Source of the DNA: a virus
Lineage: Duplodnaviria > Caudoviricetes
Reading direction: 5' to 3' (one strand)
DNA length: 32,749 bases
IMG/VR virus record: IMGVR_UViG_3300030430_002976
Location: 1 to 32,749 of that record
Part shown: one piece after another, positions 1,564-25,894 of the stretch
Numbering within the stretch: position 1 is the stretch's first letter
Layout: every line of letters begins with the position of its first letter
Notes under the pieces: generated by a model
What the model saw: the letters and a program-made list of their open reading frames with translations, nothing else
Told to the model about the DNA's origin: nothing
The model's database searches: none
Translations under genes and position numbers: made by a program

Positions 1564-2649
1564 CTACAACTCCGCATCAAAAATGTAGCCACCGTCACCC
1601 ATATCAAGAACTCCGGGGTCATTTTGTGCGCCGCCGGACGCTGTGACTACATCAAAGCCGCCAACCAAAGTGTTTGCACCTGAAGTGTTAATGCTTGATA
1701 CGTTCTGTGCAGCAGCACCTGTCTCAAAACGAGGGGTTCCAGTAATACTGTGAGAGGGTGTTGCTCTCATCGCTGTATTAAAAGGTATAATACATCTTGC
1801 CCCTGTAGCACTAGTTTTGGTGCCGATACCCACACGGCCATTGCTTACCCCTGTAAATCGTTGATGATACCTCTGGCACCGGAGCAACTCATCCTCAAAC
1901 GACCGATGCTCAAACGGCGTGGCCTGTTCGCCGATTTCAAGTTGAACCTCTGCTAAATAAAAATTGTTTGATGTGCTGTCCATCCAGTTAACTTGGTTTG
2001 TTGTAGAATAGTCATTTGCCGCAACCCAAGTGTCTGCAGTGGTATTAAAATCAGAACCCCAAGCAAGGCCAAAACCGACCTCAAGGCCAGCCCCGTTGTC
2101 GTTGTTTATAGCGCCTGCTGATGAAGTTATAAGAGACGTGCTACCGGCGGTGGGCGAGATTGTAATGATCTTCTTTTCCCAAGTGTTTGCACTGCTAATC
2201 GTGTACTCCTGCACATAATTGTAGGCAGTGTTGTCGCCTTTGTGGAGATTAATAGTATAAGTTCCTGTTTTGTTAGATTTCACATGAAATGAAAGCGTCA
2301 AAGATTTTGCAGATGATGTCCCGTAATTAAGATGCTGTAGATTTTGCGCTTCAATCTTTTGAAAAATATAGCAAAACTGTGCCGCCCCGATACTTGTGTC
2401 CGCAGTAGTAACTTGTGCCTTCAGTGAAAACCCAGTGCCTGATGGATGGTCAGAGGATTGTTCTGTTGTCATTGCGCCGTCAGTAGATTCAAAGGGTATC
2501 CAACGGTCAGCAGTCGTGTAAGTGGATGTTGCGGCTGTTGCTGAACTTGCCCTCTGAAAAATCTGATAGGCACCGTTGATAATCAGGTTCCTGTTCGACA
2601 ACGCCGACTGCGAACCAATCAGTGCGGCAAGATCTGCTGCCTTACTCAT
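1564..2649 (-). CDS. Tail fibre / receptor-binding protein with carbohydrate-binding-like domain
   Basis: 361 aa; motifs NRNLIING..QIFQR, YTTADRW, TLSFHVKS, QLEIGEQATPFEHRS..DELLRCQRY, characteristic of marine phage tail-fibre domains. Confidence 0.75.
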   Translation of the reverse strand: MSKAADLAALIGSQSALSNRNLIINGAYQIFQRASSATAATSTYTTADRWIPFESTDGAMTTEQSSDHPSGTGFSLKAQVTTADTSIGAAQFCYIFQKIEAQNLQHLNYGTSSAKSLTLSFHVKSNKTGTYTINLHKGDNTAYNYVQEYTISSANTWEKKIITISPTAGSTSLITSSAGAINNDNGAGLEVGFGLAWGSDFNTTADTWVAANDYSTTNQVNWMDSTSNNFYLAEVQLEIGEQATPFEHRSFEDELLRCQRYHQRFTGVSNGRVGIGTKTSATGARCIIPFNTAMRATPSHSITGTPRFETGAAAQNVSSINTSGANTLVGGFDVVTASGGAQNDPGVLDMGDGGYIFDAEL

Positions 2650-3029
2650 GCGAGGTCTCCGTGGATGACGAGTTCATTATTCGCTACATCTGCGCTTGTG
2701 CCACTGCTGTTCACTGTCTCAACAGCCAGCGTAGTCGTTGTTTCCATTATACAGGCCAAATTGTTGTTTGAAGGATTACTCGCTGCAAAAGCACAGGTGC
2801 CGACAGCCGCTTGATTAGTATTTTCCATCGCTGAAATTCCAGTAATCGTAAAATTACCGGCGCTGTCATCTGTCACAGAACTTGTTCCAAGAGAATTAGC
2901 GACAGCATATGTCCCAGAGTTAGTAACCATAGCAAAATACTTCGCACTGCCCTGTGCAACAAAGCTGGTGGCAATGCTGTTGTTCCCGCTGGCATCCTTC
3001 AGGGTGTTTACTCTAAGTTCACTAGCCAT
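2646..3029 (-). CDS. GDLA-family tail protein, subtype 3 (module B)
   Basis: 127 aa, ends IHGDLA; N-terminal SIATSFVAQGSAKYF resembles 5539..5925. Confidence 0.75.
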   Translation of the reverse strand: MASELRVNTLKDASGNNSIATSFVAQGSAKYFAMVTNSGTYAVANSLGTSSVTDDSAGNFTITGISAMENTNQAAVGTCAFAASNPSNNNLACIMETTTTLAVETVNSSGTSADVANNELVIHGDLA

Positions 3030-3433
3030 TATGCAAGGTCTCCGTGCATTGCGCTTTGAACATGGGTACTATCACCAAGTGAAGACCCATCATAAATCTG
3101 TATGTTGGAATTGCTGGTGTTTATGCCGGGAGTCCCGTCACCAGAACCTCCAAAGTGCCTGTTACCACCTGCCATACACGCCCCATAAAATGAATAGTTA
3201 TCACTACTCATATTGTTAGTGTAATTCATATCGTAACTGCCAGTTCCTCTGTCTGTAGCGGAACTGCCATTGAAACTGTCGGCAAAAGTTGTGCCAGAGC
3301 CGTCGTAATGAAACCAGCCTTTTGCCAGCCCCTGCTGCAAATTCGTTGTGGTCGAGTTGCCCTCGCCGGTAATCGCAATAGACCCCGCCGTGGCTACCCC
3401 TGTGATTGTATCGACCTTGAGTATGCTTGCCAT
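3029..3433 (-). CDS. GDLA-family tail protein, subtype 2 (module B)
   Basis: 134 aa, ends MHGDLA; TAGSIAITGEGNSTTTNLQQGLAKGW, DSFNGSSATDRGTGSY. Confidence 0.8.
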   Translation of the reverse strand: MASILKVDTITGVATAGSIAITGEGNSTTTNLQQGLAKGWFHYDGSGTTFADSFNGSSATDRGTGSYDMNYTNNMSSDNYSFYGACMAGGNRHFGGSGDGTPGINTSNSNIQIYDGSSLGDSTHVQSAMHGDLA

Positions 3434-3810
3434 TATGCGAGGTCTCCGTGTGACACTATATCCACTGTGTCCGTATCAAATTCAGCACCATCATGTCCGA
3501 CGCTTCTGAAACGTGTACCGCTTGCAGTTTTTACGGCGGCGTCCGTACCAATAAAAGTAAACGCCTCGTCACAGCCTACAGTAGCACCCGTAAGAGCAAA
3601 ATGAAGATTTGTGAAGGCATTTGTAAAAGTTACCGCGTACTGCCCTGTCCCATTATCTGTAAGTGATGCGTTGTTAAAAGACTCATCAACAGCCACAGTG
3701 CCTGTTCCATCAAAAACACAAAAATGTTTCGCCGCAGTCTGCTTCGTCAGTCCTACCGGCCCCGTACCCGCCTTATCCGCAATCGTGTCTACATTAAGAA
3801 CGCTAGTCAT
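3433..3810 (-). CDS. GDLA-family tail protein, subtype 1 (module B)
   Basis: Start revised to ATG 3810 (MTSVLNVDT; GGAG upstream, ATGA overlap); ends SHGDLA; GLTKQTAAKHF, ESFNNASLTDNGTGQY. Confidence 0.8.
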   Translation of the reverse strand: MTSVLNVDTIADKAGTGPVGLTKQTAAKHFCVFDGTGTVAVDESFNNASLTDNGTGQYAVTFTNAFTNLHFALTGATVGCDEAFTFIGTDAAVKTASGTRFRSVGHDGAEFDTDTVDIVSHGDLA

Positions 3811-4265
3811 ACGATGCTCCAATACCCGTTAACAGTGACGGTAGCACTCTGTGTAATCGGCCCTGCCGACACACCGTTCTCGTCGCTGTCAATCGTGATG
3901 TCTGCGCTGATGGTCTGACCGTTCAAGCGGATGATGGAGTTGTTGCCCTTGAAGGGGTAGCGTGTGTCGGACTCAGACTTGGTGTAGCTGTTTGCCACAG
4001 AAAAAGCATCATATACCACCATTTCGACAACGTCGTTCAGTGACGCCGCCGTGACCAGCACAACGGTTGTGCCTGTGGTGGCAGCGTAGTCTGTGCCAGG
4101 CTTCAACAGCACACCGTTCTGGTAGACATCCATGTACAGGCTGTCAGAGTAGGTCAGCACCAGTGAGTCAGAGTCTGATCCGCTGAAGCTCGTCTGCCCC
4201 GCCGTGGCTTGGTATACAAAGCGATTGCGGACACCAAACTCTGGGGATTTACCTATGTATGGCAT
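3807..4265 (-). CDS. Tail fibre-associated structural protein (MPYIG type, module B adaptor)
   Basis: 152 aa; ATAGQTSF / DVYQNGVLL..GTDY beta-domain; C-terminal RLNGQTISADITI...GPIT; paralogue of 6697..7146. Confidence 0.75.
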   Translation of the reverse strand: MPYIGKSPEFGVRNRFVYQATAGQTSFSGSDSDSLVLTYSDSLYMDVYQNGVLLKPGTDYAATTGTTVVLVTAASLNDVVEMVVYDAFSVANSYTKSESDTRYPFKGNNSIIRLNGQTISADITIDSDENGVSAGPITQSATVTVNGYWSIV

Positions 4266-4669
4266 TATGCGAGGTCTCCTGTAATCTGCACAAATGCTTC
4301 AGGAGGGTCGAAAACTCCAGTGCTTCCCCCCGCATTGAAGTTAGCAGTTACCCTTAATTGAGACGCAGACTTGGTGCCGCTGTCCCTTTGATACAAGGTA
4401 ATATTGCCATCTGTGGTGTCATTATTTCTTTTTATAGCAGTGGTATAGCAATAATTTGCGTTGCCCATATCGTTACCGATTGCAATCGTGTAGTCTCCTG
4501 TTCCATTGTCTGTAAGCCCACTGACATTGAAGGTGTCTAAAGTTGTTGCATCAGAAGCATCACCATCTATTGTGACCCAAGCCTTTATAAGCCCTTGAGC
4601 AAGGTTAATGGTTGCCGAGCCGCCCTCCGACCCGACAACCGTACCCTTTGTGAGATTGGTCAGCGCCAT
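4265..4669 (-). CDS. GDLA-family tail protein, solo copy (subtype-2-like)
   Basis: 134 aa; EGGSATINLAQGLIKAW, DTFNVSGLTDNGTGDY, ends ITGDLA. Confidence 0.8.
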   Translation of the reverse strand: MALTNLTKGTVVGSEGGSATINLAQGLIKAWVTIDGDASDATTLDTFNVSGLTDNGTGDYTIAIGNDMGNANYCYTTAIKRNNDTTDGNITLYQRDSGTKSASQLRVTANFNAGGSTGVFDPPEAFVQITGDLA

Positions 4670-4679
4670 CTCTTACTCC

Positions 4680-5051
4680 CTATGCGTAAGGGCTATCGCC
4701 AAGTACAGACGTATCCCAAGCTGCTTTCAGCTTTGCAATCGTGTCTGCGTCTGTGATTGCTTGTGCGGCAGGTGCATCACGCAGTGCCTTTTTCTTGGCT
4801 ACGGAAGCAGTCTTGGCAGACGCATCGTCAGCCTCAAGCGCCTTCATATACACCACGTCTTCTGCCTCAAGCAGTGGCTGACGTACTTCACGGATTTTGT
4901 CCTTGAAGATTACTTTGGCTGCGTCCATGTCCTCAGAAATGACTTTGCCAGAAAGCGACCATGCACCACGAAAGTGACGGTCAGATGGAACGGTAGCAGT
5001 AGACGCATCTATCTGATTACCGTCCTTATCAACGATGTAGGTGGTTGCCAT
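4680..5051 (-). CDS. Putative tail fibre assembly chaperone
   Basis: 123 aa; helical IREVRQPLLEAED...KKKALRDAP pattern typical of phage tail assembly chaperones; GGAG RBS. Confidence 0.6.
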   Translation of the reverse strand: MATTYIVDKDGNQIDASTATVPSDRHFRGAWSLSGKVISEDMDAAKVIFKDKIREVRQPLLEAEDVVYMKALEADDASAKTASVAKKKALRDAPAAQAITDADTIAKLKAAWDTSVLGDSPYA

Positions 5052-5062
5052 GTGGATTTCTC

Positions 5063-5542
5063 CTATGCGGCTTTGTTGTGGTGTGTGGCTAGGTCTTCAG
5101 TGATCTTCCAGGCGTTGCGCCACTCTCTAGTGCCGGGAAGCTGTTCTTTGCGGCAAATCACCATCTTTGGTTTGTTGCCCTCGTTCCACACCCGCCATAC
5201 GGATTGCGGTACGTCTTTCATAATCAGATACTCAATCGCCTGTTCTTCAGTCATTGCATCAACAGGCTTGGTGTTGTGCAACAGGTAACCGCGAGTGTGC
5301 TTTGTAAAGCCCTCTTCGGCTTCGTCCTTTGCCAACTCCCAGTACACTTCTACCGGCGGCAGGATGCCACCTTGCAATGCACAGGCCATCCAATTAGGGT
5401 CAGGCACCAGTATCTTGGCGCACTCGTCTAGGCTGTCTTCGTACACGACACGGTAGTCTGACTGCACACCCTCAAGGTTCTCTTTGGCCCAGCAGAGCCT
5501 GTCCCATAGATGTGTGCCTTGAAACTCTGGGGTCACTGTCAT
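5063..5542 (-). CDS. Hypothetical protein of the tail-fibre locus (possible chaperone partner)
   Basis: 159 aa, coupled to GDLA junction; C-terminal LPGTREWRNAWKI motif echoed in the next gene. Confidence 0.7.
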   Translation of the reverse strand: MTVTPEFQGTHLWDRLCWAKENLEGVQSDYRVVYEDSLDECAKILVPDPNWMACALQGGILPPVEVYWELAKDEAEEGFTKHTRGYLLHNTKPVDAMTEEQAIEYLIMKDVPQSVWRVWNEGNKPKMVICRKEQLPGTREWRNAWKITEDLATHHNKAA

Positions 5543-5925
5543 GCGAGGTCTCCACCAATCAATGTATATGTGCTGGAATCCGACAGAGCGTCACTAGCAG
5601 CAGAATTTGTTGTGTTAAATCGTCTACTACTTGTGGTGCTATCTGACCCAGCTTCGTAACCAACAACAGTTGTGTTAGCTGCCCCAACCCCAGAACCTGT
5701 GTGGGGTTCGTCGTCGGTGTTAAGATTATTTGTCAAATTTAAATAGGCTTCACCTGTCGCATTATCTGTAGCAGATGAAATGTTAAAGGTGGTGCCTAAC
5801 GTATCTGTAGATTGTGTATAAAAAGCAAATCCTTTTAAACTACCGTTCACCACAAAATTCGTAGCCAGCGAACCCGCAGTCGAGTGCGTCAGGGTATCTG
5901 CTTTGAGTGTACCGAAACTAGGCAT
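5539..5925 (-). CDS. GDLA-family tail protein, subtype 3 (module A)
   Basis: 128 aa; SLATNFVVNGSLKGF, TFNISSATDNATG, ends IGGDLA. Confidence 0.8.
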   Translation of the reverse strand: MPSFGTLKADTLTHSTAGSLATNFVVNGSLKGFAFYTQSTDTLGTTFNISSATDNATGEAYLNLTNNLNTDDEPHTGSGVGAANTTVVGYEAGSDSTTSSRRFNTTNSAASDALSDSSTYTLIGGDLA

Positions 5926-6317
5926 TATGCGAGGTCTCCATGTGCGCTACAATCAAATGCAAAATCTGATGTTCCACCAGAGTCTGTCACTATCTCCACA
6001 GCTAACAAACCGACTGTTGCTCTTGCTGGATTTCTCGTCACAATTCTTGCAGCGGCATTTCCTCTGCCTGTGGCTGTCATTGCATAATTCAAATTAGCAA
6101 AATTATTGGTGACAGTGACTGTGAAGTCTCCTGAACCGTGGTCGGTTCCAGCACTTACGTTCAAACTATCGTTTACTGTGGCTGTAGCTGTTGCATTTGC
6201 CCACGCCTTCGCCAATCCCTGCTGCAAACTTGTGGTAGTGCTGTTGCCTTCACCCGTGACTGCAATAGAGCCAGCAGTGCTAGTACCAGTCAGCGTGTTT
6301 ACAAGAATGGTACTCAT
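5925..6317 (-). CDS. GDLA-family tail protein, subtype 2 (module A)
   Basis: 130 aa; TAGSIAVTGEGNSTTTSLQQGLAKAW, ends AHGDLA. Confidence 0.8.
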   Translation of the reverse strand: MSTILVNTLTGTSTAGSIAVTGEGNSTTTSLQQGLAKAWANATATATVNDSLNVSAGTDHGSGDFTVTVTNNFANLNYAMTATGRGNAAARIVTRNPARATVGLLAVEIVTDSGGTSDFAFDCSAHGDLA

Positions 6318-6700
6318 GCGAGGTCTCCTGTCGATGTCAGAGACATGTGTTCAGAGTCAAAAGAAGAAGCCCCAGTGCCAGTGTTCTGTTTCACAAATAA
6401 TTTTGTAGAACTTGTCGTGACTGTTGACTGGGTATTGACGACACAACTTGCTGGATTAGATGCGTCTCCACTCTGACAGTTGGACTGTGGGGAGTATCCG
6501 GCATTTGCAAAATTATTAGTATAGTTTACTGTCTGGTCTCCTGTGCCGCCGTCTGTGACTGCACCGCAGTTAAAACTGTCACGAATAGTGGTTGTGTCAT
6601 CTCCATTGAAATTTATAAACGCTTTTGGTGCGACTTGGCTCGTCAGCGTAGCTACACCGCCGCTAGTCGATTGGATGGTATCTGCCTTTAAGGTACTCAT
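6314..6700 (-). CDS. GDLA-family tail protein, subtype 1 (module A)
   Basis: 128 aa; TLTSQVAPKAF, DSFNCGAVTDGGTGD, ends STGDLA. Confidence 0.8.
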   Translation of the reverse strand: MSTLKADTIQSTSGGVATLTSQVAPKAFINFNGDDTTTIRDSFNCGAVTDGGTGDQTVNYTNNFANAGYSPQSNCQSGDASNPASCVVNTQSTVTTSSTKLFVKQNTGTGASSFDSEHMSLTSTGDLA

Positions 6701-7146
6701 AGCGTCACCAATGTCCCACCGCTTTCAACGGTCAGGGTCACGCCACTGGCTACAGTGAACGGGCCTGTCACGTTTGCGTTCTCAGTTGCAAGGATGGTTG
6801 TGTCAGCGGTCAACGACTGTGCGTTGACGCGGAACAAACCGCCGGCCTTGAAGTTGCCTTTGTTGGCGGCAGCCGGTGTCACCGATGACGCCGCCACGCC
6901 AAGGTAAATAACAAATATATTGCCTGTGCCACTGGACGGGGCAGCAGTGAATGTCAGTGTGGTGCCATCTGGCACGGTAAAGGCATCAACGCTTTCCTGC
7001 ACAACCCCATCAACAGAAACGATAATATCCTCTTGCGTCACAGTTTGATTTAGCGTGAAGGTCGTGTCTGAGCCGTTACCATTAAACTCTTGTGTCGCGG
7101 GACGCGATTGGAACTGTGAAACTACAGGATTACCGATGAATGGCAT
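6697..7146 (-). CDS. Tail fibre-associated structural protein (MPFIG type, module A adaptor)
   Basis: 149 aa; FNGNGSDTTFTL / VSVDGVVQ / TLTFTAAP beta-domain; C-terminal RVNAQSLTADTTI...GPFTV. Confidence 0.75.
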   Translation of the reverse strand: MPFIGNPVVSQFQSRPATQEFNGNGSDTTFTLNQTVTQEDIIVSVDGVVQESVDAFTVPDGTTLTFTAAPSSGTGNIFVIYLGVAASSVTPAAANKGNFKAGGLFRVNAQSLTADTTILATENANVTGPFTVASGVTLTVESGGTLVTL

Positions 7147-14395: not shown

Positions 14396-15414
14396 TACAC
14401 AAAGTCCCTAGGGTTTCCGAATAGATTAAGGTTGGCCGCAGCCTGTTGTGGCGGTGTCATGCCGCGCGTCTGCAGTAGGTCAACCAAGGTGCCGCCGGCG
14501 TATCCGTAGGGCTGAAACAGATTGCCCTGACCGCTGTAGAGGAAAAACGGATCTTGCAGATAGTTCACAGCTAAATCATCGATAACCTCAGGCGGCGTTG
14601 TGCCAGGATCAACTGGGTCTGCCGGCGCTGCCAATGGTGGCGTTGCACTCTCATCGCTACCGCCGCCACCGACTCCGGTCATTGCAATATTGCTACTGGC
14701 CGGCACAAATGTTGGGTCTTGCTGCATACGCTGGCGCTGCCCAAAGGCAAAGGCTGCAGCGTCTGCTGGGTCGGGCGCATTGAAGAGATTGCCCAAAAGA
14801 CCACCGCCAATGATCGCGTTTATCGCTGTGCCTGGCGCTGTCACTGGCGCGTCGTTGGGATCTAGCGTGCCATAAAGTTCATCAAAAGCATCTGCAAAGA
14901 AACCGCTCATTGGGGATCGCCGGCCGGGTGCCATCGTTGGTGTCACCGGATCTGGGCGATTTGGACGAGACAAAGATTCTGCAACTGCGCGATTTATCAA
15001 CCCGGTGACGTCTTGTGCGCCGACAGGGATTTGATTGATTGCGACGGTTTCTCTGACGCGATCTCTCACATTGTTTTGTGGGTCATCAATGTCGCCTAAA
15101 ACAGACGGCTTAAAACGCACTCTGTCTCGCAAAATCTGCTGTTGTACGGGGTCAGCGTCGGGGTTCACAAGCGTTGCTACCGTAGCTATTGCTTGCTCTC
15201 GCATCTGACTAACGTCTTCGTCCTCCTCACTTGCACCAATCGGAGGCAAAATCTGACGGCTTGCGTCGATTACATTAGTCGTGCCACGAACAAGCGGACG
15301 GCCTTGATCATCAGTTTGCGCTGGCGTTGCGGTTTCACGCGCTTCATCAGCAGCGCTGCCGCCGCCGTCGCCTTTGTAGCATATGCGGTTTTCAATCAGG
15401 TAACTGCGAACCAT
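14395..15414 (-). CDS. Putative virion/ejection-type protein with N-terminal CYKGDGGGS motif
   Basis: 339 aa, low complexity (P/A/G/Q/D); overlaps the end of the acyltransferase gene by 19 nt. Confidence 0.6.
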   Translation of the reverse strand: MVRSYLIENRICYKGDGGGSAADEARETATPAQTDDQGRPLVRGTTNVIDASRQILPPIGASEEDEDVSQMREQAIATVATLVNPDADPVQQQILRDRVRFKPSVLGDIDDPQNNVRDRVRETVAINQIPVGAQDVTGLINRAVAESLSRPNRPDPVTPTMAPGRRSPMSGFFADAFDELYGTLDPNDAPVTAPGTAINAIIGGGLLGNLFNAPDPADAAAFAFGQRQRMQQDPTFVPASSNIAMTGVGGGGSDESATPPLAAPADPVDPGTTPPEVIDDLAVNYLQDPFFLYSGQGNLFQPYGYAGGTLVDLLQTRGMTPPQQAAANLNLFGNPRDFV

Positions 15415-15797
15415 AACTTGCCTCTGTGTTCACGATTTGCACGCCCGAGCACGCCCCTGCCCAAAACAGAGCGCAGATGCTGTCTGCCCTCGCGCACCAT
15501 CTGACTGACGCCGCCGAAAGGTGCAATAAAATCCACCAGCCAAAGCCTGTCACCTGCGTTCCAGTCGTCGGGCTGTATCTTACGAGAGCCGGCCAGATAA
15601 CCAGCCTCAGTCTCTTCATTAAACAAGCCCCAGGTCACAAACCCGACTGGCTGATGCTCTACTTGCCAGATGCGAAACTGCTGCAGTGCTACCGGCGGGA
15701 TGATCAGCCTGTGAACATCTTCTATAGTCCAGTTGCAGTGCTGTTCGCTTTGACCCATAAGCCAGGTCATCATGCCAACTGCCTCGGTGTTCTTCAC
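15396..15797 (-). CDS. hlyC: RTX toxin-activating lysine acyltransferase (HlyC/RtxC family)
   Basis: 133 aa; SxxH (QSEQH), PPVALQQF, PVGFVTW and DWNAGDRLWLVDFIAPFGG match HlyC-family signature motifs; GTGA overlap with portal stop. Confidence 0.9.
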   Translation of the reverse strand: MKNTEAVGMMTWLMGQSEQHCNWTIEDVHRLIIPPVALQQFRIWQVEHQPVGFVTWGLFNEETEAGYLAGSRKIQPDDWNAGDRLWLVDFIAPFGGVSQMVREGRQHLRSVLGRGVLGRANREHRGKLWFAVT

Positions 15798-17764: not shown

Positions 17765-19195
17765 TTACAATCTCCAGCCCTTGGGCTTGCTGGCATACTC
17801 AAGCCCAGCCATCATTTCTTCGATGGTCGGCTCCCGCCACGGGTCTTCCTCAATCTCTGGAGCGCGCCGCTGATACGGCCGCGCCATGCAAGCGTAACGA
17901 ATGTCATCCGCCGCATGATCTTCCTGAGTCGTGTCAATGTCCTCAACCCTGTGCTTGTCGTGCGTGAGCACTGGCAAGGTGCGGATCGTGTCCGTACACT
18001 CGCTAGAAACAAAAAGCATTGGGCAACCATCATCACCAATCAGGCGCTGGCGTACCTGATCCCAACCAGCCACCCTGCTGTTGTCAGCCCTGCGGAAGCG
18101 TATCCCCATCTTCGACAGCCGCTCACCGATCGAGGGGCCGCCATCAAACTTCCAGATGCTTGGATCACCGACACTGAAATCAATCCGCTCATGCCCCTCA
18201 CGGCTGCGGATGCCAGCGCCGACCTCTTCTGCAGTCATTCTCAAGCCCCGATTAGGGCCGGCAGCGCCATACCATTCCCGATATCTAATCAAGGCCCCAT
18301 CAGGAAAGTCTGGGTCATCATCAGCAACCGCCCACCAGCCAACGCTGAAGGGCGAGGCAGAACCCCAGTCAAAGCTGCGGAACTTCGTCCAATGCTCCGG
18401 AATATCAAACGGCCTGATGACATGCAGATCGCGGTTCCAGACATCGCCAAAAAACGAGCCAACAACCAGATCCCAGTCGCCCTCACGCAGCGCCCTGGCC
18501 AACTCCTCCGGCAGTGCCGAGAAGCTAGAGGCATATGAAGGGTCGATATACTTGTTGTCAGCCATCTTAGCCGGGATGTACATCGTCACCCAGCCTTTAT
18601 CAGACGGATCATTCGGATCACGCATCGTGTGATCGTAGAAATACTGTTCTGCCGGCGCAGGGTCGATATACAGCGCCTTCAAATAATTGTGGCTTTGACC
18701 ACCAGGGTTGGCCGTCATCACCAGCCGGGGCAAAAAGCCCTCCTGATTGGGCTGGAAGTTGCCCAGACGCATCCTCGACTTGATGTAACCCAACTGATAA
18801 GGCGTCATCTGACCCGCCTCATCAACCAGCGCTATATGTATCTCAGTTCCCTGAATACGGTCACAATCACTGTCCCGCTCCAAATACTGGAACTGAATCG
18901 AGCTGCCATTGAAGAACTCATAGCGCTTGCGCGTCTCATTGTAGTTGCCAAGCTCTCGCGGCAGCTCACGCTTCAACGGCTGTATATGGTTGGCATCCAG
19001 CTCAGGCAGTGACCGCCTGAAAATGAACGCCTGCAAGCCTGGGTTCTCAAGACAAAAGCCAATTAGGTCATAACGCCCCGCATGGCTCTTGCCGCCACCA
19101 GCAGCGCCGCCAAACAAGATCTGCTTGGCACGACACTTGTGAAGCAACGCCTGCTTTGGCTGCGGGTCATAGTCAATCTTGATGGTTTTAGGCAT
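17765..19195 (-). CDS. terL: Terminase large subunit
   Basis: Walker A GGAAGGGKS, Walker B IALVDEA, motif III TANPGG, nuclease FDWG and EDHAADDIRY. Start probably MPKTIK at 19195 (ORF track 19228). Confidence 0.95.
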   Translation of the reverse strand: MPKTIKIDYDPQPKQALLHKCRAKQILFGGAAGGGKSHAGRYDLIGFCLENPGLQAFIFRRSLPELDANHIQPLKRELPRELGNYNETRKRYEFFNGSSIQFQYLERDSDCDRIQGTEIHIALVDEAGQMTPYQLGYIKSRMRLGNFQPNQEGFLPRLVMTANPGGQSHNYLKALYIDPAPAEQYFYDHTMRDPNDPSDKGWVTMYIPAKMADNKYIDPSYASSFSALPEELARALREGDWDLVVGSFFGDVWNRDLHVIRPFDIPEHWTKFRSFDWGSASPFSVGWWAVADDDPDFPDGALIRYREWYGAAGPNRGLRMTAEEVGAGIRSREGHERIDFSVGDPSIWKFDGGPSIGERLSKMGIRFRRADNSRVAGWDQVRQRLIGDDGCPMLFVSSECTDTIRTLPVLTHDKHRVEDIDTTQEDHAADDIRYACMARPYQRRAPEIEEDPWREPTIEEMMAGLEYASKPKGWRL

Positions 19196-20714
19196 CTGGG
19201 AAGATCGAACCTTCCTCATCGCCGCCACGCTGGGTGGCCGCTACAGCCCCGCCGGTGACCAATACAGGGCCGACAATGCCGTACTTCTCTAAGATTTTGA
19301 CAGCCTTGTCGTCAAAGATGACATAGTTGCGCTCTGCGGCTTCATCAGTAACGCCAGCGCCTCTGGAGCCTGATGCACGGTATTTTAGGCCGGGAATACC
19401 GTACTTGTTCAGTAACTCCTCACCAGCATTGTCTTTGCCGCGTATTGCAGCCCAGTTGCCGAGGAAAGTGTCCACTTTCGTATCGTCGGCCAGCATGAAC
19501 TCTTTTGCCCTGTCTAGGCCCAAATCTTCATAGCCTAAATTTACGGCGTCTGCTTCAGTCAGCTCGTTTTCAACAAGATCGCGCAATTTCTTTTTGATAG
19601 CGGGATTTTGATCTCCAAAAAATTCGTCATAGTCCAGCAGCTCGTCAGGCTTGGGAGACAGCCCGACCTTGTAGACTTTGCCGCGCTCTGGGAGCGTAAT
19701 CTTGGAAACTATTTCTTCCGCGTTCTCTGGAATCCTGTCAGATTCTTTGACATTCGCCATTAAGACCTTTGCTCTTTCAATCAGAACATCTTGGGGCGCA
19801 TCAGGGTCTATGGTGAATTGACCTAAATAACGGTCTGCAAAAAGGGCCGCATCTTCTCCATAAAATTCAGCAAACTTGTTGCGGAAGCCAGTAAAGTTGG
19901 CAGCAGTTTCTGTTCCCCCGCTTGGGGCTTCAATTTTTATGTTTTGCGCTGTTTTAAGAACATTAGCGCCGCCTACACTGTTCCGATAGAACTTGGCTAT
20001 ATCCTCACTGTCAGTGAAGTACAGCCCATAGCCATACGCCTGTGCGCCCTCACCAGTGCCGATCATCTCCAGCCGGAACTCATCAAAGTCCGCGCCAGAT
20101 CCATGAAACGCTATAATGCCAGGCTCAGTCTCAGTCGGCAGAACCACCGAAACAGGGTTCTCAGCAGTCGGCGGCTCAAAGTTGCCAGTCTCAAAGTAGC
20201 GTGCCTGCGCCTGTGCCAGCGCATCGCCCATTCGCTGATTAGGGTCAACCTTGGCAACATCAGCCGCAACGTCACCAGCCTGGCCAGCAACCCTTGCAGC
20301 CCTTGGTGCCTTCAAAGTGGTGCCTATTAGCGCAAGTGGCGGGATAATCGTACCGCCAGCCATCATCACATCGCCGGCACCACCCAACGCCTGTAACCCA
20401 GCATCGAGGTAGTTGCCTTGAGTGATGTTCTGACCAAAGCTGGGCAAGAACTCGCCTGGCTGTGCCGGATCAGGAGCAAAACCCATGATGTCAGTCACGC
20501 CAGCCCCAGGCGCAAACAAACTAGCAGTCGCACCCGTCGCATAAGCCGGCATCGCCATGTCGCTGAACCGCGCAGGCTCAGCTATGTCCTGCATCGACGG
20601 CCTAATGCGACCAGAGAAAAACCGACTGTCGCTGAACGGGTCTTCCCGCGCATCCGACATCAATCGCTGCGCCATCATGCGACGCGCAAAGCCTGTTCTC
20701 GCTGTTTCGGACAT
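19188..20714 (-). CDS. Protein with ADP-ribosyltransferase-like (polyvalent-protein ART) domain
   Basis: 508 aa; AFHGSGADFDEF..IGTGEGAQAYGYGLYFTD and GIPGLKY...NYVIFD motifs; A/G/M-rich N-terminus. Confidence 0.6.
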   Translation of the reverse strand: MSETARTGFARRMMAQRLMSDAREDPFSDSRFFSGRIRPSMQDIAEPARFSDMAMPAYATGATASLFAPGAGVTDIMGFAPDPAQPGEFLPSFGQNITQGNYLDAGLQALGGAGDVMMAGGTIIPPLALIGTTLKAPRAARVAGQAGDVAADVAKVDPNQRMGDALAQAQARYFETGNFEPPTAENPVSVVLPTETEPGIIAFHGSGADFDEFRLEMIGTGEGAQAYGYGLYFTDSEDIAKFYRNSVGGANVLKTAQNIKIEAPSGGTETAANFTGFRNKFAEFYGEDAALFADRYLGQFTIDPDAPQDVLIERAKVLMANVKESDRIPENAEEIVSKITLPERGKVYKVGLSPKPDELLDYDEFFGDQNPAIKKKLRDLVENELTEADAVNLGYEDLGLDRAKEFMLADDTKVDTFLGNWAAIRGKDNAGEELLNKYGIPGLKYRASGSRGAGVTDEAAERNYVIFDDKAVKILEKYGIVGPVLVTGGAVAATQRGGDEEGSIFPDA

Positions 20715-24894: not shown

Positions 24895-25245
24895 ATGGTG
24901 CAACAAGATTTACTCGAATGGCCTGGTCGCGCCGGCCCAAACGTCCACAAAGATGCTAGAGACACAGAGATCGAGGCCGCTGAGTTTGTGGCCCCGAAAG
25001 TGACGGGCCTGCGGCTCAAGGCTCTCATAGCGCTCAAAGACGCGCCAGCGGGGCTGACCGGTAGTCAAGTGGCCCAGAAAATGGGCGCTTGGATCTACAG
25101 CGTGAAGCCTCGCCTGACAGAGCTTGACCGCATGAAGCTGGTTGAAGACAGCCAGCGTCGCGAGAAAAACGACCGTGGCCGCAAAGAAGTCGTCTGGCAG
25201 ATTACAGCAGCCGGTCGTGAGTTTTTGGAGACGCTGAATGACTGA
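24895..25245 (+). CDS. Winged-helix DNA-binding protein
   Basis: GLTGSQVA..SVKPRLTEL..LVEDS.RR..GRKEVVWQIT; GGAGG RBS before ATG 24895. Confidence 0.75.
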   Translation: MVQQDLLEWPGRAGPNVHKDARDTEIEAAEFVAPKVTGLRLKALIALKDAPAGLTGSQVAQKMGAWIYSVKPRLTELDRMKLVEDSQRREKNDRGRKEVVWQITAAGREFLETLND

Positions 25246-25894
25246 AAGCAGCAAAATAAATACTGCCATAGCAAGGGCAATGGGAGAGGTGCAAAAGCTG
25301 CCCAAGGATGACCGCAATGAACACGGGAAATACAGCTTTGCTTCAATTGACAGATTTCTTGATGCGTGCCGGCCGATATGCGCGGCGCACGGCTTACATC
25401 CAAACATCGACGGCGTAGCCTCAGACACATTCATGGCTGGCAGTAATAAGCTGTGGGGCAAATTTAGCTACCGCATCTCGATGCACCATGAGTCGGGTGA
25501 AAGCACTGAGCCATCCGGCTTGGATGTCATGTTGCCTTTGACCGGCGCGCAAACTAGCGGCTCTGCACAAAGTTATGCGCTGAAGCAATATCTGCGCGGC
25601 TTGCTGATGATATCTACTGGTGAAAAAGACGATCCTGATTTTAATCAGCCAGCACCCAAAGACGGTGTCGAGGCTTCACCAGCGCCGGTTGTCCAGCAAC
25701 CGGTGAGCGAGAAAAGCCCTGAACAAATGGAAACAGAGATAAAAAAACAAACGACTTTGGTCGGGTTGAACACCTGGCAGCAAGAAAATCTTCATTGCTT
25801 GTCGGCGCTGCAACAAAGCGATTACGACCTATGGCAACGTCTTTACAATGTGTGGCTAGAGAGAGAGAAGGAGATCCGAAATGGCAGCACCTGA
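25238..25894 (+). CDS. erf: ERF-family single-strand annealing protein
   Basis: KDDRN..KYSFAS.D, HESGE, QTSGSAQSYALKQYL.GLLMISTGEKDDPD signature. Confidence 0.85.
   Translation: MTESSKINTAIARAMGEVQKLPKDDRNEHGKYSFASIDRFLDACRPICAAHGLHPNIDGVASDTFMAGSNKLWGKFSYRISMHHESGESTEPSGLDVMLPLTGAQTSGSAQSYALKQYLRGLLMISTGEKDDPDFNQPAPKDGVEASPAPVVQQPVSEKSPEQMETEIKKQTTLVGLNTWQQENLHCLSALQQSDYDLWQRLYNVWLEREKEIRNGST

Follow-up and report, generated by a model that had tools for sequence, protein, structure and literature searches.

We have analyzed the fiber genes of a tailed phage (Caudoviricetes) known from the IMG/VR record IMGVR_UViG_3300030430_002976, all 32,749 nucleotides (nt) of which are referred to below as the window; seven short paralogues in this region encode a C-terminal head that ends in the residues GDLA. 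In these genes and their relatives, we have shown a fixed gene order, slot-specific N-terminal leaders, movement of heads from slot to slot and from phage to phage within the limits of two short DNA anchors, and the joining of unrelated passengers to these leaders. On balance, the locus probably encodes a branched tail fiber in which each slot protein forms its own homotrimeric mini-spike, with three different spikes sharing the C-terminal socket of each trimeric adaptor, one at each position; the assembly, virion location, and binding of these proteins are what we infer from the genes.

Slot order and leaders

The seven paralogues encode proteins of 125 to 134 amino acids (aa), all on the minus strand, with an invariant T, K, TD, and G and the terminal GDLA. 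Six of them follow two adaptor genes of approximately 150 aa, in identical order both times (slots A1 to A3 and B1 to B3; Table 1), B1 starting at the ATG at position 3810. A preliminary description of the window had reported these genes, their motifs, and their duplicated order, and all of these observations were confirmed. Relatives were collected from IMG/VR as 74 loci matched by B2, a set biased towards B2-like genes, and 80 loci per adaptor, of an estimated ~950 and ~820 matching stretches in the collection; up to five genes were walked downstream of each adaptor. Of the distinct modules, 107 were of type A and 118 of type B, and 88 and 89 of them, respectively, were readable to the terminating gene; modules ending at a contig edge or at the five-gene limit were left out, and because this removed the L080 type, which has four leader genes, exceptions are somewhat undercounted. 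Exactly three slots were found in 171 of these 177 modules (85/88 A and 86/89 B), and one, two, or four slot genes in the other 6. Outside this count, module A of five loci (L080, L089, L154, L157, and L162) has two non-GDLA leader genes and a chaperone gene between A1 and A3.

The leaders follow position. In an unsupervised clustering of gene starts, all 115 members of the B1 leader cluster stood first after adaptor B, 88 of the 89 members of the A1 cluster stood first after adaptor A, the slot-2 cluster stood second in 183 of 193 cases, and the B3 cluster stood third after adaptor B in 93 of 100. This slot order is far beyond chance, and the triplet order is conserved among relatives, not random. 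It had been proposed that position predicts one of three N-terminal subtypes; the leader clusters do follow position, but between the window modules, leader identity falls to 44% for slot 1 and 36% for slot 3, and there are therefore five leader classes, not three. The slot-2 leaders of modules A and B are, as described earlier, identical at 26 of 32 residues with many synonymous changes, since different codons are used at 15 of the 23 identical residues of positions 14 to 39. When 550 distinct GDLA proteins were divided at the conserved lysine into leader and head, the median leader length was 24 to 36 aa across the six main slots and the head was ~98 aa; the leaders have a common short pattern. 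A leader tree required 12 changes of slot, against 112.6 with shuffled labels, and 3 changes of position, against 79.8; these figures, like a nearest-neighbor leader classification (148/150), are partly circular, since the slot labels were derived from the leader clusters, and the cross-table with position is the fair test.

The seventh paralogue lies alone between the modules. The suggestion that this solo gene is a spare slot-2 subunit, to be counted as an extra slot-2 option, was rejected: the solo gap has its own N-terminal peptide and varied passengers, and the gene fills its own docking slot. A GDLA head is present in 30 of 107 distinct versions of the solo slot, and unrelated passengers are present in most others. 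The N-terminal peptide, of ~5 residues, is kept over very diverse passengers, mostly of 117 to 433 aa (L006 to L222).

The two adaptors are 40% identical over 43 C-terminal residues, and the socket lies at the end of all 11 proteins inspected among 20 longer proteins, some of which carry PF03906 (T7-fiber-like N-terminal anchor). Adaptor A matches PF03906 with 21.2 bits, below the cut-off of 25.2, and adaptor B has no PF03906 match. The adaptor monomer model had a predicted local distance difference test score (pLDDT) of 53.5. A complex prediction of three adaptor B C termini (residues 88 to 152) with three B1 chains gave 0.87, 0.15, and 0.02 in its runs, with the median under the mark; its controls were not folded, and it is used neither for nor against any reading.

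Exchange of heads and foreign passengers

Whereas the adaptors and partner genes are 82 to 89% conserved, the heads are hypervariable: the 550 sampled fall into 483 clusters at 90% identity and 414 at 60%, 312 of the latter being singletons. All heads have a conserved core. Those of the window are 18 to 35% identical in pairs, and the heads inside one module have a median identity of 28% (146 triplets). The median head identity is 0.27 to 0.30 within slots and 0.27 to 0.29 between slots. In a tree of 180 of the 502 nonredundant heads, compared with 300 label shuffles, 114 changes of slot were required against 116.8 ± 4.0 (87/300 shuffles were as low), and 75 changes of position against 85.4 ± 4.2 (reached by 2/300 shuffles). 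The prediction that these proteins would cluster by position and not by genome therefore holds for the leaders; the heads carry no slot signal and a weak position signal, which we read as more frequent exchange between like leaders. The earlier view of tail fiber proteins with conserved, position-specific N termini and variable distal parts is supported by these data.

Among the 72 head pairs that are at least 90% identical, 35 are cross-slot, 22 of these being in different positions. Of 36 same-type module pairs with a near-identical head, 28 share one head, 4 share two, and 4 share three, a distribution that suggests mostly single replacement of heads. In 37 cross-slot pairs, the stretch of DNA in common starts at −21 to +39 nt from the conserved Lys codon and finishes at −20 to +8 nt from the stop codon. 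The DNA alignment of the window B2 head with the A2 head of locus L004 shows a clean switch, from the A2 leader to this head and then to the A3 gene, and the B1 head of the cultured SAR116 phage HMO-2011 is 84% identical to an A3 head (L191). The GDLA codon run serves as the 3′ anchor and also contains the ribosome-binding GGAG of the next gene (e.g., 2649-2660 and 3436-3447); across 513 genes, these codons were GGA in 507, GAC in 473, CTC in 294, and GCA in 486, against backgrounds of 22%, 36%, 7%, and 39%, respectively. Contigs from three of four metagenome runs connect anchor and leader at five of the six triplet heads, with 90% likeness over short sides of 25 to 58 nt, a weak indication of co-occurring phages with other heads. 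In two loci (L094 and L097), slots 2 and 3 have seemingly been exchanged reciprocally between modules A and B.

Invertible fiber switches and shufflons, such as those of Mu (G) and P1 (C), place cassettes in opposite orientations between inverted sites. A programmed inversion switch was rejected here, as the seven genes are all encoded on the same strand and their common anchors are repeated in direct orientation; neither a site-specific recombinase, as expected for such switches, nor a reverse transcriptase, as expected for a diversity-generating retroelement, was found in a Pfam scan of 37 window open reading frames (ORFs), which are part of the ORFs of a contig that may be incomplete. Assembly chimeras were likewise rejected as a full account of the data, since rare chimeras would have left the tree signal in place and since isolate HMO-2011 also has mixed modules and heads related to other slots.

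Foreign domains take up the same slots. In 16 of the 177 modules, one slot leader carries an unrelated passenger and the other two slots carry GDLA heads; examples are Peptidase_S74 in L055 A2, Peptidase_G2 in L032 A2, and C1q in HMO-2011 B2 and L141 A1. A scan of 28 passenger proteins, some of them outside the 177-module count, found one Peptidase_S74, one Peptidase_G2, and four C1q domains (one below the cut-off), and seven accessory genes match the phage tail assembly chaperone family. HMO-2011 itself has five GDLA heads and no all-GDLA triplet; both of its modules are mixed, and mixed modules are therefore not an assembly artifact.

Other phages separate the head from the slots. In SI2, the single GDLA head of the whole record ends a 491-aa fiber, which is followed by both partner genes; as the head is the sole copy there and also occurs in the solo slot, it appears to be self-sufficient. 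Although the name of this record (L226; HQ332136) is Dunaliella viridis virus SI2, it is placed in the Caudoviricetes, and its fiber is of the phage type. In the freshwater isolates Mel-JY33 and Nsp-JY18, the socket is followed by exactly three leader genes with GDLA-family heads, and in pelagiphage HTVC115P, it is followed by three leader genes with no GDLA head but with C1q/TNF-type matches in two of the three. It is the socket and the leaders, rather than the family of the heads, that carry the rule of three. Microcystis phage Mel-JY33 (L223) and Nostoc phage Nsp-JY18 (L227) have near-identical fibers with three different heads each, one of which is annotated, probably wrongly, as a putative alpha amylase.

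Predicted fold, assembly, and alternatives

The GDLA head is predicted to be a lectin-like beta-sandwich resembling the C-terminal heads of trimeric tailspikes. The B2 model (pLDDT, 75.5) places this sandwich at residues 36 to 132; its best structural matches are C-terminal tailspike heads (phiAB6, Pam1, and LKA1) and AP22 gp53, and H-type lectins and pyocin fibers score slightly lower (Z scores, 7.5 to 4.8). The Z score was 7.5 (root mean square deviation, 2.9; 90 residues aligned) to the C-terminal domain of 5js4, 5.6 to 4mtm, and 5.0 to SLL-2 and discoidin, all of which are below 8. A search of predicted viral structures gave 49 matches at an E value of ≤0.001, several of which are long tail fibers. 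Sequence searches of the PDB found nothing meaningful, and the Atlas gave only unnamed viral clusters, with leads scoring below 0.9 to K1-lyase_C and Gp53-like_C.

It can be envisioned that each slot protein trimerizes, aided by the 159- and 123-aa partners or by a passenger-specific chaperone, and that it docks through the first ~10 residues of its leader beside two other spikes on a socket with three nonequivalent occupants. The 159- and 123-aa genes would then encode shared folding or capping partners. The former follows the GDLA gene or genes in HMO-2011, Mel-JY33, Nsp-JY18, and SI2 and has no family match in Pfam, PHROG, or the Atlas; the latter has no Pfam chaperone match and no significant pairwise match to a tail assembly chaperone. 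A virion may display up to eight different heads, drawn from a large shuffled pool, and these heads would bind host surface glycans. Short-homology recombination during coinfection may reshuffle them, possibly with a contribution from the ERF-family protein of the window.

Another explanation may be a heterotrimer of chains, in which one chain from each of slots 1 to 3 is zipped by its leader into the trimeric socket, with the heads as mixed trimers formed through the conserved core or as monomers. The near-constant three slots per module and the predominance of single-family triplets are in its favor, but we regard it as unlikely, given that single slots next to two GDLA genes are taken by foreign domains, among them the trimer-dependent S74, and that both modules of HMO-2011 also have a foreign passenger; self-cleavage of S74 needs trimerization, according to the text available from PMC11058221. 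Heads within a module also have a low median identity (28%) and are mostly swapped singly, and the head works as a sole copy in SI2 and the solo slot. Slightly less likely still is the strict form of this arrangement, in which three different GDLA heads are forced by their leaders to form one mixed trimer whose binding grooves are composite; were it true, the shuffling of several hundred head variants would provide some of the most abundant ocean phages with an antibody-like combinatorial receptor repertoire. The obligate 1:1:1 heterotrimer of the preliminary description is thus unlikely in view of the trimer-forming passengers in single slots and the lone head of SI2; the cross-module mixing proposed with it survives as some interchange of slots 2 and 3 between modules (L094/L097 and L143). 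"One of each" is probably a rule for whole spikes and not for chains.

It is also conceivable, though improbable, that the three paralogues are alternative tips that compete for one site, giving one homotrimeric spike per adaptor trimer and mixed virions. The common leader pattern, the six modules with one, two, or four slot genes, and the L080-type loci with an extra leader gene would suit such competition; the leader classes, however, remain distinct and ordered despite heavy recombination, and three slots are kept in unrelated phages, including the freshwater isolates and the pelagiphage with different heads. We consider it very improbable that the small proteins are decoration, capping, or nonvirion accessory proteins instead of receptor binders: while "tail fiber" names are annotation only and a receptor role is read from sequence, long tail fibers contain the same domain or fold, the heads are hypervariable beside conserved adaptors and partner genes, and the passengers include C1q, named among the putative host recognition proteins of marine phages in the part of PMC3909814 available.

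Several points weigh against the homotrimeric spikes that we favor. Of the 177 modules, 161 are unmixed, and the all-GDLA triplets that make up most of these fit a chain heterotrimer equally well, as do those of Mel-JY33 and Nsp-JY18 and the three similar heads of HTVC115P; the core conserved in all heads could allow mixed trimers. That C1q is trimeric and that G2 self-cleavage depends on trimerization are general background brought to this argument. A symmetric socket holding three different trimers would need putative spike-spike contacts. The Z scores of the fold matches (≤7.5) are middling and no higher than is usual for common arrangements, and Foldseek found nothing in the PDB at an E value of ≤0.001. 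The heads keep a weak position signal, and most loci are metagenome contigs, in which chimeras at the shared anchors are possible. A tripartite heterotrimeric fiber with positional clades has been shown biochemically in a virophage, as stated in the accessible text of PMC12724248. Homotrimer assembly and virion location are predictions made from the genes.

Genomic setting and comparison with known systems

The window covers the greater part of the genome of a tailed phage; Pfam and PHROG matches identify portal, terminase, capsid, and tail genes. Its sequence is present in marine metagenome runs, and none of the listed runs containing it is an RNA run. The fiber module alone points to a marine alphaproteobacterium as the host. 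On the minus strand, the fiber region reads 408-aa fiber, 115-aa protein, adaptor A, A1 to A3, 159-aa gene, 123-aa gene, solo paralogue, adaptor B, B1 to B3, and 361-aa gene (Table 1); the seven GDLA genes have no Pfam match above the cut-off. The G+C content is 0.45 to 0.49 in the seven slot genes, 0.53 to 0.54 in the adaptors, and 0.525 in the window. The capsid protein belongs to a lineage other than that of HMO-2011, the best listed match being to a Bradyrhizobium phage (50%). Directly after the portal gene lies an ORF of the HlyC RTX-toxin acyltransferase family (15396-15797, minus strand; 114 bits, cut-off 25); no RTX toxin gene was seen among the window ORFs scanned. A 508-aa protein (19188-20714, minus strand) between the small and large terminase genes has a subthreshold ART-PolyVal match.

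Table 1. Genes of the fiber region and a candidate recombination gene in the window
Feature	Position	Strand	Evidence and remarks
Probable proximal tail fiber, 408 aa	7503..8729	-	Placed after tail genes and repeats; weak PHROG match only; putative role
Probable hinge or hub protein, 115 aa	7146..7493	-	~50% identity to pelagiphage proteins annotated "virion structural protein"; putative role
Adaptor A, 149 aa, C-terminal socket	6697..7146	-	PHROG tail fiber, E 1.9e-31; 70% identical to HMO-2011 gene 41
Slot A1, leader and GDLA head, 128 aa	6314..6700	-	
Slot A2, leader and GDLA head, 130 aa	5925..6317	-	
Slot A3, leader and GDLA head, 128 aa	5539..5925	-	
159-aa conserved partner gene of GDLA heads	5063..5542	-	Putative chaperone or cap; median 85% identity in relatives
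123-aa conserved partner gene	4680..5051	-	Putative assembly chaperone, from position only; median 88% identity; phrog_20196, unknown function
Solo slot, 134 aa, own short N-terminal peptide and GDLA head	4265..4669	-	
Adaptor B, 152 aa, socket at end	3807..4265	-	Median 89% identity in relatives
Slot B1, leader and GDLA head, 125 aa	3433..3810	-	Head 86% identical to L079 B2 head
Slot B2, leader and GDLA head, 134 aa	3029..3433	-	Head 99% identical to L004 A2 head; predicted beta-sandwich
Slot B3, leader and GDLA head, 127 aa	2646..3029	-	Head 61% identical to HMO-2011 A3 head
Eighth slot, 361 aa, own conserved leader	1564..2649	-	PHROG tail fiber, E 1.7e-54; GDLA head in 11/85 distinct relatives
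ERF-family DNA annealing protein	25238..25894	+	Pfam ERF, 56.9 bits (cut-off 25); candidate agent of head exchange, putative link

Host recognition in the abundant phages that infect SAR116 and SAR11 is largely unexplained beyond the term "hypervariable island." Metaviromic islands of marine phages contain hypervariable host recognition genes, including C1q and tail fibers, and are described in the available part of PMC3909814 as variability, not as a slot architecture or as head exchange between paralogues. The locus resolves such an island into docking slots that are fixed and small heads that recombine freely within a shared pool, and the module is common to phages with different capsids and to freshwater isolates. 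Full-text searches of the open literature, without subscription papers and supplements, listed no account of a socket with three slots or of heads exchanged between its paralogues. Genes 41 to 28 of Puniceispirillum (SAR116) phage HMO-2011 have the same layout, with adaptors 70% and 85% identical and partner genes 87% and 77% identical, but in both slot-2 genes the head is not of the GDLA type and comes with a chaperone gene of its own. The predicted many-headed fiber can be checked directly on this cultured phage, and binding heads of ~100 residues, as predicted, would allow specificity to be mapped one head at a time.

The three consecutive paralogues in conserved order are reminiscent of the tripartite heterotrimeric tail of virophage DSLV2; there, in the text available from PMC12724248, whole proteins form positional clades and copurify 1:1:1, whereas here only the leaders follow position and the slots accept unrelated folds. 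The heterotrimers in the accessible parts of PMC10966104 and PMC13450770 are baseplate wedges and are not relevant here. The phiAB6, Pam1, and LKA1 tailspike heads, AP22 gp53 (a homotrimeric lectin-like head, according to the accessible portion of PMC11058221), R-pyocin fibers, and H-type lectins are the best fold matches of the predicted GDLA head, which differs in being ≤18% identical to them, in having no Pfam match, and in being encoded as a stand-alone mini-gene with putative sugar binding.

The closest functional parallel may be the adaptor-based systems of K1-5, K1E, and SP6 (gp37 with two tailspikes) and of G7C, CBA120, KP32/KP34, Menlow, and K64-1, which likewise combine a small adaptor with several receptor-binding proteins that have short conserved N-terminal peptides and exchangeable bodies; in K1-5/SP6 and the anchor-branched systems, attachment is by peptides of 7 to 11 residues (PMC6872550, in the part available). 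The window likewise has several putative receptor-binding protein genes in which a short conserved N-terminal peptide is joined to one of various unrelated, exchangeable bodies. Unlike K1-5/SP6 and the anchor-branched systems, it has three ordered slots per socket, in two modules with two further slots, and heads of ~98 aa without a beta-helix, one family of which moves freely among all slots. By analogy, the locus, a possible member of this group, would work like the K1-5/SP6 adaptor systems but on a larger and recombinationally open scale.

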